Assembly (NCBI GenBank): GCA_000004695.1
Contig: CH709156.1
Span: 1-6,581 of the forward strand
DNA length: 6,581 bases
Source: Dictyostelium discoideum
Taxonomy: Eukaryota
Reading direction: 5' to 3'
How positions within the stretch are numbered: the stretch's first letter is position 1; each line of letters starts with the position of its first letter. The notes under the pieces were generated by a model. It was not told where the DNA came from. It ran no database searches and saw only the letters and a list, made by a program, of their open reading frames with translations. Below are positions 768 to 6,581 of the stretch, one piece after another. The position numbers were made by a program, and so were the translations under genes.

Positions 768-820
768 AAAAAATTATCTTAAATATTTGGGAAATTCAAA
801 TAAATAAATGTTATTCATAA

Positions 821-835
821 TATATATATATATAT
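821..835. repeat. (TA)7-8 microsatellite just upstream of the integrase ATG
   Basis: tatatatatatatat read directly. Confidence 0.9.
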
Positions 836-846
836 GATAATATAAA

Positions 847-2298
847 ATGGACTTCTCTCAAATTACTAACTCTCTTAAAAATTCTTTTTGTGATAATAAT
901 TATTTTAATACAGGTATCATTCTTGATGAAATGAAGATCGTTAAGGAAATTTCGAAAGGTTATGAATTGGAAACTAAACTCATTATGTCTGAAGTCATCA
1001 ACGACCAGTATAAGAGCTTAAATATTACATATCAAAATGGTATCAAATGGATCAAGATTGACAATCAACTTAAAATCGTCGTCCCTCAAATTGACGATGT
1101 CATCCATTTAATCATTTCAAGTTATCATGATTCTGCTATTGCTGGACACTGGAGTAATCGTAAAACTTCTGAATTAGTCAAAAGAAATTTCTACTGGTAT
1201 GGAATGATGGAAGATATCCAACTCTACTGCAAGAATTGCAAAGTTTGTCTATGCGCCACAGATGCACACCAAAGAGCCATGGGATTGTACTTGCCATCTC
1301 ATGTACCTGTCAGATGCTTCATGGAAATCAATATGGACTTTATATCCGGGTTGGATGCCTGCACTGTTGATCAAGTTGAGTATACAAGAATATTGGTAGT
1401 AGTTGACCGTCTATCAAAGTTTGTAGTACTCATTCCCATTCCAAATCATACAACGTCAATTCAAGTTATCAACTTTATTCAAGATCAAGTCTTCTTTACG
1501 TTCGGTATGCCATCAGTCATCATCAGCGATAATGATCCTTTGTTCACATCAATACCTTGGAAGAAATGGATACAAGCCAACAATATTACTCACAATACAT
1601 GCCTACCTTACCACCATCAAGGTAATGGTCAAGCTGAAATCATGGTCAGAATTGTCACAAATGCTCTCAGAAAGTGCCTAATCAATTCCAAGTTTGTTTC
1701 TAATCCAGATATATCATCCATTGAGTTAAATAATATTCAAAATGATTGGGTCGGTTACTTGAAAAGTGTACAATTCTGCATCAACAATACTGTTTCTGAA
1801 AGTACTTCATTTACACCATTTCAAGTTCTCACTGGTTCTCATACAAGGTCTCCAATATCATTAATCATGCAATATGAAGACGACAAGTACTCAAGATCTT
1901 TAGGGTTGGACAAGAAGTCGTATTGTGAATTCGTTCAACACAAACTCAATATCCTAGATGTGGTCCAAGATAACCTGACTGATAGTATCGAACGTTCAAG
2001 ACAGCAGTATAATAAGAATAAATCACCTAATATCCTGGTGGAAGGTGATATAGTATATCTTCAAGAACTCAATACTGGTGCGCACCCAATTAGAAAGTTA
2101 GATATCCGAAGGACAGGGCCATATACAGTATGTAAACTCATGGAGAAGGGTAACGTTATGGTCCGTTTGTTCAAGAGTGATGAGGTTAAAGATGAACAAG
2201 TGGTTCACATTTCAAGACTAACTCTGGTTCCTAGTGCTGGTTACATTTCCCACATCGATCAATCTTCTTTTGATAATCCCAATTTAGACGTCGAATGA
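847..2298 (+). CDS. Ty3/gypsy-type retrotransposon integrase (IN) ORF. It is isolated, with no reverse transcriptase or RNase H in frame upstream; a frame-1 stop TAA lies at 838-840.
   Basis: HHCC zinc finger YHDSAIAGH...FYWYGMMEDIQLYCKNCKVC (nt 1126-1239). Catalytic D164 (MDFISGLD, nt 1336-1338), D228 (IISDNDPLFTS, nt 1528-1530) and E264 (YHHQGNGQAE, nt 1636-1638) give exact D,D(35)E spacing. GDIVYLQ motif and GPY/F module RRTGPYTV (nt 2116-2124). Confidence 0.9.
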   Translation: MDFSQITNSLKNSFCDNNYFNTGIILDEMKIVKEISKGYELETKLIMSEVINDQYKSLNITYQNGIKWIKIDNQLKIVVPQIDDVIHLIISSYHDSAIAGHWSNRKTSELVKRNFYWYGMMEDIQLYCKNCKVCLCATDAHQRAMGLYLPSHVPVRCFMEINMDFISGLDACTVDQVEYTRILVVVDRLSKFVVLIPIPNHTTSIQVINFIQDQVFFTFGMPSVIISDNDPLFTSIPWKKWIQANNITHNTCLPYHHQGNGQAEIMVRIVTNALRKCLINSKFVSNPDISSIELNNIQNDWVGYLKSVQFCINNTVSESTSFTPFQVLTGSHTRSPISLIMQYEDDKYSRSLGLDKKSYCEFVQHKLNILDVVQDNLTDSIERSRQQYNKNKSPNILVEGDIVYLQELNTGAHPIRKLDIRRTGPYTVCKLMEKGNVMVRLFKSDEVKDEQVVHISRLTLVPSAGYISHIDQSSFDNPNLDVE

Positions 2299-3199
2299 GT
2301 CAAGAAATCCCGACACGAATGGCCAGGTTAGTCATGGTAATGACACGTCACCATCAGACGTTGATCTTACAAGGGATCAGTCCAGGTCATTACAGTTATC
2401 ATCACCATCATTTTCTGATAATGATAATAATATTATTGATACTAATAATTCATATATAGGTAATGCTGCAGCTCAAGATGATCGATCAATTTCAATTCAT
2501 GTACATGATAAAGATTTAGTTGCCATTGGTCCATCCATAAGTATGGATAATCACTCAATCTCAAGTAATGCTTTACATACTGATAATCATTCAATCAATT
2601 TTGGTATTTCTCATATGGATCAATCTGGTAATAGTTCCACTCAGTTGGAAAAAGAGGGTAGATTATTATCAAATAATAATAACAATTCTAGCAATATAGT
2701 AAATAATAATACATCAGCCCAACATCAATCATCGATTCAAGATATAGATTGGAATAATAATCCGGTAAATAATAAAAATAGTATATCAACAATATCAGAA
2801 CCAATTGGTAGCAATGATTTTAATCAATCAATTCAACAACAGAATAATATCAATCTCAATAAACTAATCAATACAGAATCACTAAAGAATAATATAAAGA
2901 GTAAATCATTTATAAATAGAATCAATCAACTCAAAGAATATGAGACTAGTAGTGAATATGATCGCAAGCCCAATAATAGCAGTAATCAACTAATCACAGA
3001 ACTAATGTTATCACCAATACCACCAAATACATTTACAATAATAAAGAAAAGGACATACAAAATAGTTAATAAGAATAAAACATTTATAGAGTATCTAATT
3101 TCAGTATCAGATTCACTAGCATGGGTATCAGCAGTAACAATGAAAAGACAACATAATCAACAAGAAATCAATTTGAAAATTATATCAAATCAGGACTAG
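2288..3199 (+). pseudogene. +1-frame continuation of the integrase reading frame (open from 2288, overlapping the IN stop at 2296-2298). Asn/Ser-rich low-complexity linker plus a C-terminal chromodomain-like segment (TFTIIKKRTYKIVNKNKTFIEYLISVSDSLAWVSAVTM, nt 3029-3142). The ORF track reports only the ATG-initiated part, 2543-3199.
   Basis: Manual translation: frame 2 has a stop at 2285-2287 and is then open to the TAG at 3197-3199. The chromo-like call rests on a loose match to the chromodomain pattern (hydrophobic-x-V/I-E/K...R...EYL[VI]..., then a W-containing strand). Terminal chromodomains follow the GPY/F module in chromoviruses such as Skipper, which is established knowledge. Confidence 0.45.
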
Positions 3200-3353
3200 A
3201 AAATAAACAATAAAATTCTAAAATTTAAAATAAATAAACAGTATAATTAAATTCGCAGTAAAAATCTACCCCATAAACCTGAAATCAGTATTGGTCTATA
3301 TTGAGAAATAACAAAGAATGAATAAAAGTATAAAAATAGAATTCTTAAAATAG

Positions 3354-3388
3354 GTTGTAACAAGATCTCAAAAAAATATCTTGTTAAT
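3354..3388. repeat. Perfect 9-bp inverted repeat taacaagat / atcttgtta with an 11-nt A-rich loop
   Basis: Read directly. Confidence 0.7.
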
Positions 3389-3411
3389 ACTAATATTTAT
3401 TTAATTTTATG

Positions 3412-3433
3412 AAATGTTCTAAACAGAACATTT
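3412..3433. repeat. Perfect 9-bp inverted repeat aaatgttct / agaacattt with a 4-nt loop (aaac). It shares the AATGTTCT/AGAACATT half-sites with the palindrome at 749-766.
   Basis: Read directly. Confidence 0.7.
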
Positions 3434-3712
3434 AAAAATAACTATTAATATTGAATTGATAATTTAATATTAAATTATTACTAACTTAATTCATTTTAAT
3501 AAATTGTTTCATTTTATATAATAAATTCACTAAACACAACTAAACAATAATTCAAAAATAAATAATAATAATTTAGAATATAGTTTTGTTTCAACATTTT
3601 GTTATGACACATACAATTCAGAAAATAATAATAATTTATTTTATTATTTTGTTTAAAGGGGTTATCTCCCGTTGTAATTAAATTTAATTAATTTTAAATT
3701 AAATTTAATTTT

Positions 3713-3713
<1 letters not shown>

Positions 3714-3750
<37 letters not shown>
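3714..3750. repeat. Poly(A) tract of 37 A residues, preceded by an AT palindromic repeat (aattaaatttaatt x2, 3676-3710)
   Basis: Counted directly. Confidence 0.9.
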
Positions 3751-3755
<5 letters not shown>

Positions 3756-3925
3756 TTGAATTTCACAAAAAGTTTTCATAACAGATATTAGATACCAGAT
3801 ATTAAAAATGCCACACACAAAATCACCAAATAAAATAATAATATAAATTTAAAAATAATTTAATTAGAAGAGAAAATAATAATTAAATTAAAATAATATA
3901 ATATTGTAGTTTAAATTGGATCTAA

Positions 3926-4053
3926 CCCTATCGGCCGAGGTTGGAGTAGTTAATAGATTTGAGTTCGCTCAAATCTAAGGACTATAAAAGGGAACTAGGT
4001 TTCCAATTCAACCTCAGTAGTAAATATATACAAATAATAAAAACACGATAGGG
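3926..4053. ncRNA. Candidate structured element (ncRNA or transposon-terminal structure) in a GC-richer island. Not a tRNA.
   Basis: The outer stem is ccctatcg 3926-3933 pairing with cgataggg 4046-4053. The inner stem is gaggttg 3937-3943 pairing with caacctc 4010-4016. A central perfect 9-bp stem agatttgag/ctcaaatct carries a UUCG tetraloop (3955-3976). A TATA-like ctataaaag lies at 3983-3991. GC content is clearly above the flanking ~90% AT sequence. No tRNA A/B boxes or cloverleaf were found on either strand. Confidence 0.3.
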
Positions 4054-4166
4054 CTACGGTCATTAATTAATTTTGTGTACATTTATTTCTTAAATAATTA
4101 ATCATTTTACTTTAATAATAGAATAAATAAATAATTAAATTTTATTAAATAATTTATTTTAAGAGA

Positions 4167-4508
4167 ATGTCGACTAATAATAACGAAGATATTGATAATT
4201 ATGAATTGCAACAACAGGATAATGAGGAACAACAACAACCACAGGTATCAACATTCAATGAACAGCAACGTCAGATAAGGGAACAGCAGCAGGTAATAGA
4301 TAAACAAAATCAACAACACATTCAATTAATAAATCAACAATCTCAACAACAATTGAATAATCATACGACACCACCATCATCACCCAACATTACAACACCA
4401 ATAACTTCAGCAGCAATAACCAACACAATAAAGATATCATTAGGAAAAATTAACACTGATGATACCGACCACCAGTTGTTACATATCCCTCTAAATATAA
4501 AATTCTAA
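4167..4508 (+). CDS. Small Gln-rich hypothetical protein (113 aa)
   Basis: ORF track: ATG in an aagagaATGtc context, Q/N-rich, P/T-rich C-terminal half. No homology recognised. It may be ORF1 of the downstream transposon-like unit or an independent gene. Confidence 0.35.
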   Translation: MSTNNNEDIDNYELQQQDNEEQQQPQVSTFNEQQRQIREQQQVIDKQNQQHIQLINQQSQQQLNNHTTPPSSPNITTPITSAAITNTIKISLGKINTDDTDHQLLHIPLNIKF

Positions 4509-4557
4509 GTACTAAATCATATATCTACTTGCCATAATGCTAAAATTTGAATAAAAT

Positions 4558-4608
4558 GAAAAAAAAAAAAAAAAAACGTAAAAACTCGAGGAAAAAAAAA
4601 AAAAAAAA
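4558..4608. repeat. Two poly(A) tracts (A19 at 4558-4576 and A17 at 4592-4608) flanking a cgtaaaaactcgagg spacer
   Basis: Counted directly. They explain the artefactual KKKKKK N-terminus of track ORF 4547, which starts at TTG rather than ATG. Confidence 0.85.
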
Positions 4609-4639
4609 TATTATTTTTAATTTCCAGCCAGCAAACAAA

Positions 4640-5476
4640 ATGAATTTAAATAACATATCATGCATTAATTGCAGAGAAAAATTAAAGAATTTTAAAAATA
4701 TTATTATTCATTATATTATGCATAAAAATATATGTCCATTTTGTCTTGCATATTACCGTTCTTATAAACAATTTTATGATGTAAATGGACATTCCAACAT
4801 CAAAAAATGTAAAAATGAACAAAATAAAATTATTACAAATAATCAAAAAAGAGATAGCTTTTATAAAAAATTAATGGATATTACTGGTGAAAAAATAAAA
4901 TATCCAACAAATGATTCAGATGACCCATGTAAACATTTATGTAACCAAAACCAAGATGAAATTTTTTATCAAGAAAATAATGAAAATAATGAAAATAATC
5001 AAACAATTGATAATGAAGAAAATCATGATATAATTGGGTTGGTACATAGTGAAGATGAAAACAATGAAATTAGAATAGATGAAAATGAAGCAAACATTAA
5101 TAATGAAAATAATGAAAATAATGAAAATGAAAATGCTCAAAACGAACCAATAAATAATAATCTAAATAATAATTTAGATAATGAAAAATCAAAAAAAAAA
5201 TTAAATGAAACTGAAATTGAATTTTTAATGTTGGGAATTGAAAACTCAATAAGTTTAAAGCTACTTGAAAAATTTAAAAGTTTTATTGACAAAAATAAAA
5301 CCAATTTAAATCAAATAAGATACACACCTCAATATATGGATAAATTATTTATGGAAGATTTTCAAATAAAAGGAGAAACATTTATAAATAAAAATTATGA
5401 TCACTCAATTTTTTATTTTGAAATTAAAAAAGTATTAGAAACTTTATTAAATAAAAAGCAATTTTTGAAAGAATAG
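4640..5476 (+). CDS. N-terminal part of a TNP2/CACTA-KDZ-like transposase: zinc-finger domain (C-x2-C-x12-H-x3-H at nt 4661-4723, then CPFC) plus an acidic N/E-rich repeat region
   Basis: First in-frame ATG after the poly(A) tracts (4640, MNLNNISCINCREKLKNFKNIIIHYIMHKNICPFC...). Zinc-binding N-termini (Transpos_assoc-type CxxC...CxxC) are characteristic of TNP2-family transposases, which is established knowledge. The stop is at 5474-5476. Confidence 0.55.
   Translation: MNLNNISCINCREKLKNFKNIIIHYIMHKNICPFCLAYYRSYKQFYDVNGHSNIKKCKNEQNKIITNNQKRDSFYKKLMDITGEKIKYPTNDSDDPCKHLCNQNQDEIFYQENNENNENNQTIDNEENHDIIGLVHSEDENNEIRIDENEANINNENNENNENENAQNEPINNNLNNNLDNEKSKKKLNETEIEFLMLGIENSISLKLLEKFKSFIDKNKTNLNQIRYTPQYMDKLFMEDFQIKGETFINKNYDHSIFYFEIKKVLETLLNKKQFLKE
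4973..5135 (+). repeat. Coding trinucleotide/9-mer repeats (AATAATGAA)n encoding (NEN)n in two blocks (~4973-5000 and ~5099-5135)
   Basis: Read directly. They give rise to the spurious antisense ORF 4937-5140. Confidence 0.8.
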
Positions 5477-6581
5477 ATTTTGATACAGATTTTGAAACTG
5501 GAATTTATACAAATTATAAAAGTGGTCAACAATTTAAAGATTTAAAAAATAAAAATAAAAATAAAATTGTTTTACTTAGAATATTCACTGATAGTATGCA
5601 GTGTCAAAACAAGAAAGATTATACTATAATGCTGGATATAGAAAATTATATTGGAAATGAATTTAAAAATAATAAATTATTATTATTTGTAGTACCAAAT
5701 GATTGGTTACTTAATTTTCATCAAACAATTAGGGCATTGTTTTCATCTTTTATTGGTAATGGCTTTAATTTAATTATTGAAAATGAACAAATAGATGTTG
5801 TACCGTTTGGACTGACAATGGATATTCCAGAATTTAGAGCATCCTGTAAACTTAATGGACATAATTCAAATGAATATGCATGTCACACATGTGACAAACC
5901 AAGAGATGGTTTATTTATTTGCAAATCAGGTACATTAAGAAAACAAGAAGATATTACAAATTTTCACTCCACCAAACCAAATTATGCTGAACTAAATGCT
6001 GATATAGAATTAAAAAAAGTATGGGAAAAAAAAGCAAAAGATATTGGTATCAAAGGTGTGGACAGAGGGTGGGTCGAACCTTTGTCCATTAATTATTTAA
6101 AAACACAACCAGACATTTTACATAATATTTTATTAGGTGTCGCACAAAAATGTTTAAATTACATTTTTGATAAATATAAAAATAAAATTGCAAATTTTTT
6201 AAATAATTTAAAAAATGCAAAAATAATAGATAACAAACCAAAACCTTCAATTTCACTATTTGCAAATAAAACAAGGAAAGGAAGAGAGAATAGATCAATA
6301 ATATATTACCTTTTAATATCAATTAAAAATCAAATATCAAATGATGATTTTTTAATTATGGAACAATTCGTAACTATATGTTTTAAATTATATAGTGACT
6401 CTTTTGATGAAAATGATTTAAATTCACTTCAAGTATTAATTGAATCGTTTAATGCAAAAGTAAATTTAATTACTGAAACAGAAATAATGAATTTCCACTT
6501 GTTGTTACATTATCCAATCTATATAAAAAATTGGGGTGCACCAAAATACACTTCAGCTGAAACTTTTGAAGCACAATTATC
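5452..6581 (+). CDS. Catalytic core of a TNP2 / En-Spm(CACTA) / KDZ-Plavaka superfamily DDE transposase. Open frame-1 segment with no stop in 1130 nt, continuing beyond the window.
   Basis: Manual translation with no stop from 5452 to 6581. Motifs: LLRIFTDSMQ (nt 5572-5601; cf. ILSSDKTQL / LSTDGFNPF), VVPNDWLLN (cf. TPYNLPPWL), DIPEFRASCKLNGHNSNEYACHTC (nt 5821-5892; cf. WTINDFPAY...G...CPVC), DILHNILLGV (nt 6112-6141; cf. DVMHIEKNV) and HLLLHYPIYIKNWGAPKYTSAETFEAQL (nt 6496-6579; cf. HLFLHL..EDI..WGP....MYPFERFMG..L). It is not in the ORF track because it has no stop codon in the window. Confidence 0.7.

Follow-up and report, generated by a model that had tools for sequence, protein, structure and literature searches.

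An isolated integrase reading frame in a Dictyostelium discoideum repeat contig, very probably the DIRS-1-severed and frameshifted 3' half of a Ty3/gypsy retrotransposon

The window analysed here, the 6,581 nucleotides (nt) of contig CH709156.1, is one unplaced contig of Dictyostelium discoideum AX4 in which every part is derived from repeats, nested in one another. An end of the element DIRS-1 lies on its left and a copy of a second, multicopy repeat on its right. Between them, at 847–4483, stand an integrase open reading frame (ORF), a C-terminal extension of about 360 residues, a 3' spacer and a 3' long terminal repeat (LTR). We read this central segment, with high confidence, as what remains of a single Ty3/gypsy LTR retrotransposon copy: its dead 3' half, cut off by DIRS-1 and frameshifted. 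The element belongs to a chromovirus-related dictyostelid lineage, and nothing in the window requires either recoding or a host function.

The integrase ORF (847–2298, plus strand) encodes 483 residues and is the 3' part of a Ty3/gypsy pol gene, as judged from Pfam matches, motifs and homology to a near-full-length element of D. cf. discoideum (L001). It comprises an N-terminal extension, an HHCC finger, a D,D35E core and a GPY/F module, and it ends at a TGA that was created by an insertion (see below). Pfam recognizes Integrase_H2C2 (PF17921, E = 1.9e-15) and rve (PF00665, E = 1.2e-12), and there are sub-threshold matches to SH3_Tf2-1 and Integrase_p58_C (E about 0.1) over the GPY region. The finger spans residues 94–131 (H94-H101...C128-C131), and the catalytic triad is formed by D164, D228 and E264, with exactly 35 residues separating the second Asp from the Glu. 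GPY is located at residue 424, and the surrounding 'GDIVYLQ...RKLDIRRTGPYTV' agrees with the GPY/F consensus G(D/E)...KL...GP(Y/F)x(I/V) (PMC5006619 Fig. S1). Pfam and the motif positions thus confirm the complete HHCC finger, exact D,D(35)E spacing and GPY/F module described in the initial annotation of this DNA. Within the window, the same is true of its observation that the ORF starts three codons after a stop codon, with neither reverse transcriptase (RT) nor ribonuclease H (RNase H, RH) upstream. No called gene is recorded for the ORF itself.

In having an integrase-like ORF with no RT next to it, the window copy recalls GIN-1, a domesticated retroelement integrase, and Ginger2/Tdd-4 of D. 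discoideum, an integrase-encoding DNA transposon. Unlike these, it is accompanied by an LTR and a purine-rich tract, members of its family have RT and RNase H upstream, and its relatives are decayed rather than conserved. No terminal inverted repeats of the DNA-transposon type bracket the ORF; a Tdd-4/Ginger2-type transposon was therefore rejected in favor of an element with an LTR and RT-bearing relatives.

We scanned 1.8 billion representatives in full with HMMER. The top ranks are taken by fragments from strains of D. discoideum and from D. cf. discoideum, followed by full-length polyproteins of other genera, namely those of Synstelium polycarpum (38% identity), Heterostelium album (35%) and Polysphondylium violaceum (32%). 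Two near-full-length relatives, L001 from D. cf. discoideum and L006 from D. discoideum, carry zf-CCHC, RT (RVT_1) and RNase H (RT_RNaseH) directly upstream of the integrase. P0009 and P0013 each form one polyprotein and, like P0155, are continuous. The pol order protease (PR)–RT–RH–integrase is accordingly found in the family but not in the window copy, where DIRS-1 stands in the place of the upstream pol.

The window integrase shares 83% protein identity with that of L001 (10001–11443). Differences at codon positions 1/2/3 number 65/32/204 and are thus almost all synonymous, giving a ratio of non-synonymous to synonymous substitution rates (dN/dS) of 0.056. Such a low ratio is expected of two copies whose lineages stayed active until just before they inserted, and it does not imply a host function. 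With no more than one disabling lesion across 2.35 kb, the dead window copy looks relatively young. A distance matrix places the window with the D. discoideum relic L003 and the D. cf. discoideum copies in a group of their own.

The isolation of the integrase is explained by its left-hand neighbor. Positions 1–846 represent the left end of a minus-strand DIRS-1 element, with its natural outer terminus at 846; the left inverted terminal repeat occupies about 400–846, and the start of ORF1 (GAG) runs from an ATG at 398 down to 60. The segment 534–848 is 92% identical to the D. discoideum DIRS-1 terminal repeat that follows the tyrosine-recombinase gene in L003 (18313–18630), and 1–539 is 84% identical to the adjoining ORF1 region (L003 9296–8759). 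The minus-strand ORF at 398–60 shows 88% protein identity to the ORF1 start (L003 8883–9113). DIRS pieces near related loci show Dam-type methyltransferase and tyrosine-recombinase signatures.

The internal complementary region of DIRS-1, 88 nt long, is made up of 33 nt complementary to the left repeat at its outer end and 55 nt complementary to the right repeat at its outer end (PMC7192593). In the L003 element this region (about 18200–18290) reads '...CATAATATATATATATATGATAATATAAA|TTAAAAATTT...' (CATAATATATATATATATGATAATATAAA|TTAAAAATTTAATTT in the longer reading), and its first part is identical to window 814–846. No base is thus missing from the end of the left repeat, and the integrase ATG begins immediately after it. 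A truncation of the repeat at the junction, considered because two D. discoideum copies are about 33 nt longer, was rejected, as those copies are right repeats and the internal complementary region places the end of the left repeat exactly at 846. The window thus holds an inverted terminal repeat with a heat-shock element and with an outer end matching the internal complementary region, followed by the start of ORF1. These features assign 1–846, and only this segment, to DIRS-1, an interrupting insertion separate from the integrase element. Because DIRS-1 ends exactly at its ATG, the integrase stands isolated. At the junction point, the uninterrupted D. discoideum copy L006 reads 'GAAGTAAAATGGAC', which is consistent with tyrosine-recombinase integration at an AAA trinucleotide, and in uninterrupted elements (L001, L006 and P0003) the Met encoded at 847 lies within pol.

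A heat-shock promoter upstream of the integrase had been noted in the initial annotation. The sequence is real: alternating GAA/TTC units at about 744–770 represent the known heat-shock feature of the DIRS-1 repeat. However, it belongs to that repeat, which promotes only inward, and a reversed right repeat failed to drive green fluorescent protein (GFP) (PMC3950715). For the repeat in the window, inward means leftward, and the promoter therefore fires away from the integrase.

Downstream of the coding region, a 3' untranslated spacer (3200–3355, plus strand) contains the purine-rich tract AAAATAGG at 3347–3354, which by its position is a putative polypurine tract. It is followed by a 3' LTR of 1128 bp (3356–4483, plus strand) with 7-bp terminal inverted repeats, 5'-TGTAACA...TGTTACA-3'. 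Both ends of the LTR are defined by other copies. Window 3355–4484 is homologous to L001 5901–6975, where the 5' LTR of L001 (5902–6975) starts with TGTAACA after a T-run and ends with TGTTACA. It is immediately followed by 'TGGTAGCTTCTC', a primer-binding site of the TGG type (TGGTAGC). A remnant of the L001 3' LTR (11547–11888), located after the integrase and carrying a 5' deletion, is 97% identical to the 5' LTR of the same element. A 348-bp direct repeat in L001, considered as a full LTR or as a duplicated gag start, was rejected, since it is the 3' part of the 1.07-kb LTR. In contig L009 from a D. discoideum strain, a solo LTR (22271–21134) matches exactly 3356–4484 with 95% identity and is flanked by a perfect 5-bp duplication, TTATG. 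Finally, similarity to three other copies of the right-hand repeat begins exactly at 4483/4484. LTR with TG...CA ends, primer-binding site, putative polypurine tract and short target-site duplication are thus present across the copies, and the 5' LTR of the window copy itself lies outside the window. The initial view that no recognizable LTR exists on either side was wrong.

The integrase frame is followed by a C-terminal extension of 303 codons in frame 2 (2288–3199, plus strand), assigned by homology of the tail and consisting of an N/S/Q-rich linker and a terminal module. This frame is open from 2288 to 3199 and overlaps the TGA at 2296–2298. The chance of 304 open codons is about 5e-12 at 42% A and 28% T, and the maximum in 2000 shuffles was 137 codons; the frame open across the integrase stop, to which the initial annotation had drawn attention, is therefore far above chance. 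Its protein-level homologs are the tails of the L002-minus, L005-minus, L003 and L002/L005-plus copies. The linker is weakly constrained, with substitution rates at codon positions 1/2/3 of 0.23/0.25/0.33 versus L002-minus.

Comparison with the homologous copies, which are one base shorter, locates a frameshift at 2294–2298, where 'GTCGAATGAG' contains one extra A. This base creates the TGA at 2296–2298 and shifts the ancestral frame to frame 2. The window reads 'GACGTCGAATGAG', whereas the relatives, each lacking one base, read 'GGCGTTGA-CGAC' (L001), 'GACATTGA-TGAT' (L002 minus) and 'GATGCCG-ATATG' (L003); in the short alignment of the site, these are 'GTTGA-CGAC', 'ATTGA-TGAT' and 'GCCG-ATATG'. 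In all three, the end of the integrase and the start of the tail lie in one frame. The L001 protein P0001 reads straight through the site, and frame 2 of the window beyond it aligns codon for codon with the integrase frame of the relatives. The +1 shift therefore reflects a 1-nt insertion private to this copy, or else an assembly error, and not a feature of the family. Among the readings proposed in the initial annotation, that of a frameshift-mutated retrotransposon relic is hence supported by an insertion absent from copies of three lineages.

The same annotation had also raised a +1 frameshift at the stop codon. Programmed frameshifting is known from Ty1, Ty3 and antizyme, and at GAA-UGA-G it would join the integrase to its tail; the two ORFs do overlap at the stop codon, and frame 2 remains open for 303 codons and encodes a homologous tail. 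However, L001, the L002/L005 minus copies and the D. discoideum relic L003 are one base shorter, run in a single frame and have no stop at this point. The shift site and the 0-frame stop are therefore unconserved, being absent in three related lineages, and re-pairing from GAA to AAU is not known as a slippery context. These comparisons largely refute programmed frameshifting, and we give it almost no credence.

A sequencing or assembly error would have a different consequence, as the copy would then hold an intact integrase-plus-tail ORF of 786 codons and would represent a recently active element. The window is a short, unplaced repeat contig of a Sanger-era assembly, the extra base is the only disabling lesion in 2.35 kb, and deletion of one A restores in-frame homology. 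On the other hand, the base lies outside any long homopolymer, and the truncation by DIRS-1 leaves the copy dead in either case. We consider such an error unlikely.

The copy was probably disabled in the following order. A gypsy-type copy would first have inserted into another repeat, whose sequence starts at 4484. DIRS-1 would later have recombined into pol at an AAA trinucleotide right before an internal Met codon, at the boundary of RNase H and integrase. This step would sever the integrase from gag-PR-RT-RH and give its ORF, presumably not expressed, the look of a free-standing gene with its own ATG. A single-base insertion at ~2294 would then have introduced the TGA and put the tail, with its conserved and putatively targeting-type module, out of frame. 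If the DIRS-1 insertion was a simple one, the severed gag-PR-RT-RH part beyond DIRS-1 would end with '...GAAGTAAA'.

Some points weigh against the relic interpretation. The 5' half of the element lies outside the window, and a clean DIRS-1 insertion and a DIRS-mediated rearrangement are indistinguishable here. The extra A may have arisen by misassembly of a low-coverage repeat contig; the integrase-tail ORF would then be intact. An exapted gene would likewise show a 483-codon ORF beginning exactly at the junction, and the homologous AX4 annotated fragment DDB_G0267222 starts at the same Met.

These last two points, together with the intactness of the ORF and its low dN/dS, are what speaks for capture of the integrase as a host gene driven by the heat-shock promoter of the adjoining DIRS-1 repeat, a further reading of the initial annotation. 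Against it, the promoter reads leftward into DIRS-1 and a reversed repeat failed to drive GFP (PMC3950715), the start Met is an internal pol residue in the uninterrupted L001, L006 and P0003, and the C-terminal module is out of frame. Moreover, the element's own LTR is retained at the locus. Frameshifts and deletions occur in the junction copies L002-minus, L005-minus and L007 and in the relics L003, L006 and DDB_G0267222, and every related copy found in D. discoideum strains, D. cf. discoideum and D. dimigraforme is either a fragment or frameshifted. Selection on active elements before the window copy inserted accounts for the low dN/dS. Host capture therefore finds no support from the promoter, the LTR or the related copies, and we regard it as very improbable.

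The final part of the extension (2984–3199, plus strand) is a conserved C-terminal module of 71 residues with the core 'FTIIKKRTYKIVNKNKTFIEYLISVSDSLAWVS' at about 3029–3142, identified from a cross-genus hidden Markov model (HMM) and a predicted fold. An HMM built only from the C-termini of the Synstelium, Heterostelium and P. violaceum proteins matched tail residues 232–288 with E = 2.9e-11, and phmmer aligned the tail with the Synstelium protein at 2.6e-6. The last ~70 residues of the tail are a genuine conserved domain, common to elements of Dictyostelium, Synstelium, Heterostelium and Polysphondylium. An AlphaFold model of the module has a predicted local distance difference test score (pLDDT) of 70.5, with 83–88 in the strands, and its predicted topology is helix, three strands, helix.

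In a divergent sister copy from D. cf. discoideum, the module is present twice (L002 12375–12530 and 13011–13250; L005 8473–8628 and 9098–9340). The two modules are 80% identical to each other and separated by an N-rich linker, as after an internal duplication or rearrangement.

The initial annotation described the end of the tail as chromodomain-like. Pfam Chromo (PF00385) gives no match at E <= 10 in the whole tail, in its last 100 or 71 residues or in the homologous modules of four relatives, whereas the Skipper-2 chromodomain, used as positive control, scores 1.6e-5. With hhalign, the probability of a match to six chromodomains from HP1, Pc and retroelements is about 1%, and a profile search of PDB sequences returned no match. 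Against 71 integrase-linked chromodomains, hhalign aligns 38–60 columns in the expected register with P = 0.007, and one of 300 column shuffles reaches this score. This register places 'EYLIxV...W' against 'EYLVKW...W', and a canonical chromodomain occupies the same terminal position in at least 90 of the 150 best integrase relatives. All three positions of the aromatic cage are non-aromatic in this register ('EYLISV' for 'EYLVKW', 'SD' for 'GY'). The match in this register and the frequency of chromodomains among the relatives are weaker lines in favor of a chromo-like origin. What stands of the earlier claim is weak evidence from profiles and from the fold, and not a Pfam domain; the chromo fold itself is a three-stranded sheet against which a C-terminal helix packs. 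The annotation had also turned on whether relatives end at the same stop before an unrelated 3' region; they continue the integrase into a homologous tail, which speaks for it, and the lack of a chromo HMM match speaks against it. The ~70-residue module may be a cryptic, cage-less chromo or chromoshadow-like domain, a tentative assignment that we hold with somewhat less than even confidence.

We compared the element with the LTR families published for D. discoideum. Its GPY/F region 'LVEGDIVYLQELNTGAHPIRKLDIRRTGPYTV' is unlike the Dd_Skipper-1, Dd_Skipper-2 and Dd_DGLT-A rows (PMC5006619 Fig. S1), and a Skipper-2 copy in L002 that agrees exactly with this figure yet shares no more than about 30% identity with the integrase of the window. 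The 1128 bp found here disagree with the LTR lengths published for these families, 390, 208 and 265 bp (PMC5006619). The family is therefore not Skipper-1, Skipper-2 or DGLT-A, and the Skipper-like identity raised in the initial annotation, which had proposed an alignment to Skipper and DGLT-A, is not borne out. Skipper-1 and Skipper-2 do resemble the window element: they too are of the Ty3/gypsy type, combine a GPY/F module with a long integrase extension and reside in DIRS-1-rich repeat clusters. However, neither matches its GPY/F region and integrase core, and their LTRs measure 390 and 208 bp. The Skipper-2 chromodomain is itself diverged (group II) and lacks the cage residues (PMC5006619), but it passes Pfam Chromo, which the window tail fails.

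The closest full-length matches are instead the DGLT-A.1-3 elements of P. pallidum (H. album), also named Gypsy-2/3/4_PPP, and the elements of Synstelium and P. violaceum, all of them Ty3/gypsy with the order RT–RH–integrase. The core motifs of the H. album protein agree with the Pp_DGLT-A1 row of Fig. S2 in PMC5006619. Their integrases are 32–38% identical to that of the window over the full length and share core motifs such as 'NGQ(A/V)EI' as well as the terminal module. Pp_DGLT-A.1-3 cluster with Skipper and have integrase extensions of 264–333 residues without a detectable chromodomain (PMC5006619), as does the window element. They differ in coming from other genera with only about 35% identity and in their LTRs of 212–601 bp (1128 bp here); furthermore, all D. 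discoideum copies examined are broken. We place the family in the same dictyostelid lineage as P. pallidum DGLT-A.1-3. Targeting to tRNA genes was considered and rejected, as ARAGORN finds no tRNA gene in the window.

In PMC5006619, Dd_Skipper-2 was formerly called DGLT-P according to the text and DGLT-B (AF474004) according to the footnote of Table 1, and one of these older names might denote a different element.

DIRS-1 ends or fragments also abut the integrase of this family in L002, L005, L007 and L003. Across the different copies, DIRS-1 termini meet the first 200 bp of the integrase at three positions: a left end precedes codon 1 at window 847, a left end precedes codon 67 ('AAA|TGG') at two D. 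cf. discoideum loci (L002 about 15803, L005 about 11903), and a right end precedes about codon 20 in L007 (about 9925). The repeated junctions could be due to an insertion hotspot, to ascertainment bias or to one event followed by microhomology deletion. A reading of the L002/L005 minus copies as the window junction with a 195-bp microhomology deletion is doubtful. A DIRS-1 left end directly before codon 67 fits their sequence equally well, and it also fits the tree, in which these copies group with L001 and not with the window. Within the DIRS-1 repeat of the window, the segment at about 605–700 contains an extra unit of ~45–60 nt compared with the L002 and L001 copies. It resembles the adjacent 'TTTTCGACCTTACACAAT...GTGCCGGTTCGAAATTTTT' and is a local tandem duplication.

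The LTR also contains the start of the element's first ORF (gag leader; 4167–4508, plus strand), which begins inside the LTR, crosses its end and stops in the flanking DNA. This ORF also starts inside the 5' LTR (6628–7032) and the 3' LTR remnant (11547–11897) of L001, and the encoded protein has the conserved motif 'TPITS..ITNTIK..DDTDH.LLH'. Its start lies about 320 bp within the LTR, and it continues past the LTR end and through the primer-binding site; such a start is unusual but known, for example, from Ty1. The 670-residue gene model P0001 wrongly fuses the integrase with this LTR ORF. Elsewhere in the LTR (window 3920–4050; L001 6470–6555), a conserved inverted repeat of 8–9 bp, CCCTATCGG ... 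CCGATAGGG, surrounds a TATAAAAG box and, from its sequence, may be a promoter or regulatory hairpin. The A37 run at 3714–3750 has a T/A-run counterpart in the L001 LTR.

The flanking DNA at 4484–6581 (plus strand), outside the retrotransposon, is a copy of a multicopy repeat encoding proteins like DDB_G0294226. Its 3' gene fragment (5476–6579) is 100% identical to the partial AX4 protein DDB_G0294226 (318 residues), the only annotated product of the window that was found. Copies without the LTR in L008, L009 and L006 are 97–99% identical to it. P0160 and P0180, considered as the orthologous locus in another strain, were rejected because they are other copies of this repeat. The repeat family also encodes DDB_G0294010, DDB_G0267190, DDB_G0267274 and many 'hypothetical proteins' in other strains. 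No Pfam family matches its proteins, in which Cys/His-rich motifs occur, for example 'CINCREKL...HKNICPFC' and 'HNSNEYACHTCDKPRDG'. Translation moves from frame 2 (4547–5476) to frame 1 (from about 5476), by a frameshift or an intron, and the gene looks like a transposase-type one.

The window copy is the relic of an ordinary transposon, and its specialist interest is limited to its apparently uncatalogued family and to the conserved terminal module. For the annotation of AX4, it shows that a seemingly free-standing integrase ORF can be a transposon fragment produced by DIRS-1 nesting, and neither a gene nor a recoding site. The copies also point to a family in the D. discoideum group whose LTR measures 1.1 kb, whose primer-binding site is of the TGG type and whose target duplication is 5 bp long, and which is unlike the three LTR families tabulated for D. 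discoideum by Spaller et al. 2016 (PMC5006619). The module conserved across four genera is a concrete domain in which to test for integration-site targeting. Pp_DGLT-A.1-3 have been published as elements without a detectable chromodomain (PMC5006619); if the module is a cryptic chromodomain, the whole 'DGLT-A (P. pallidum type)' lineage would consist of degenerate chromoviruses. Their targeting module would no longer read histone H3 lysine 9 methylation (H3K9me) but could still tether integration, for instance via HP1-type contacts, and such tethering would fit the nesting of the family with DIRS-1 in centromeric clusters.

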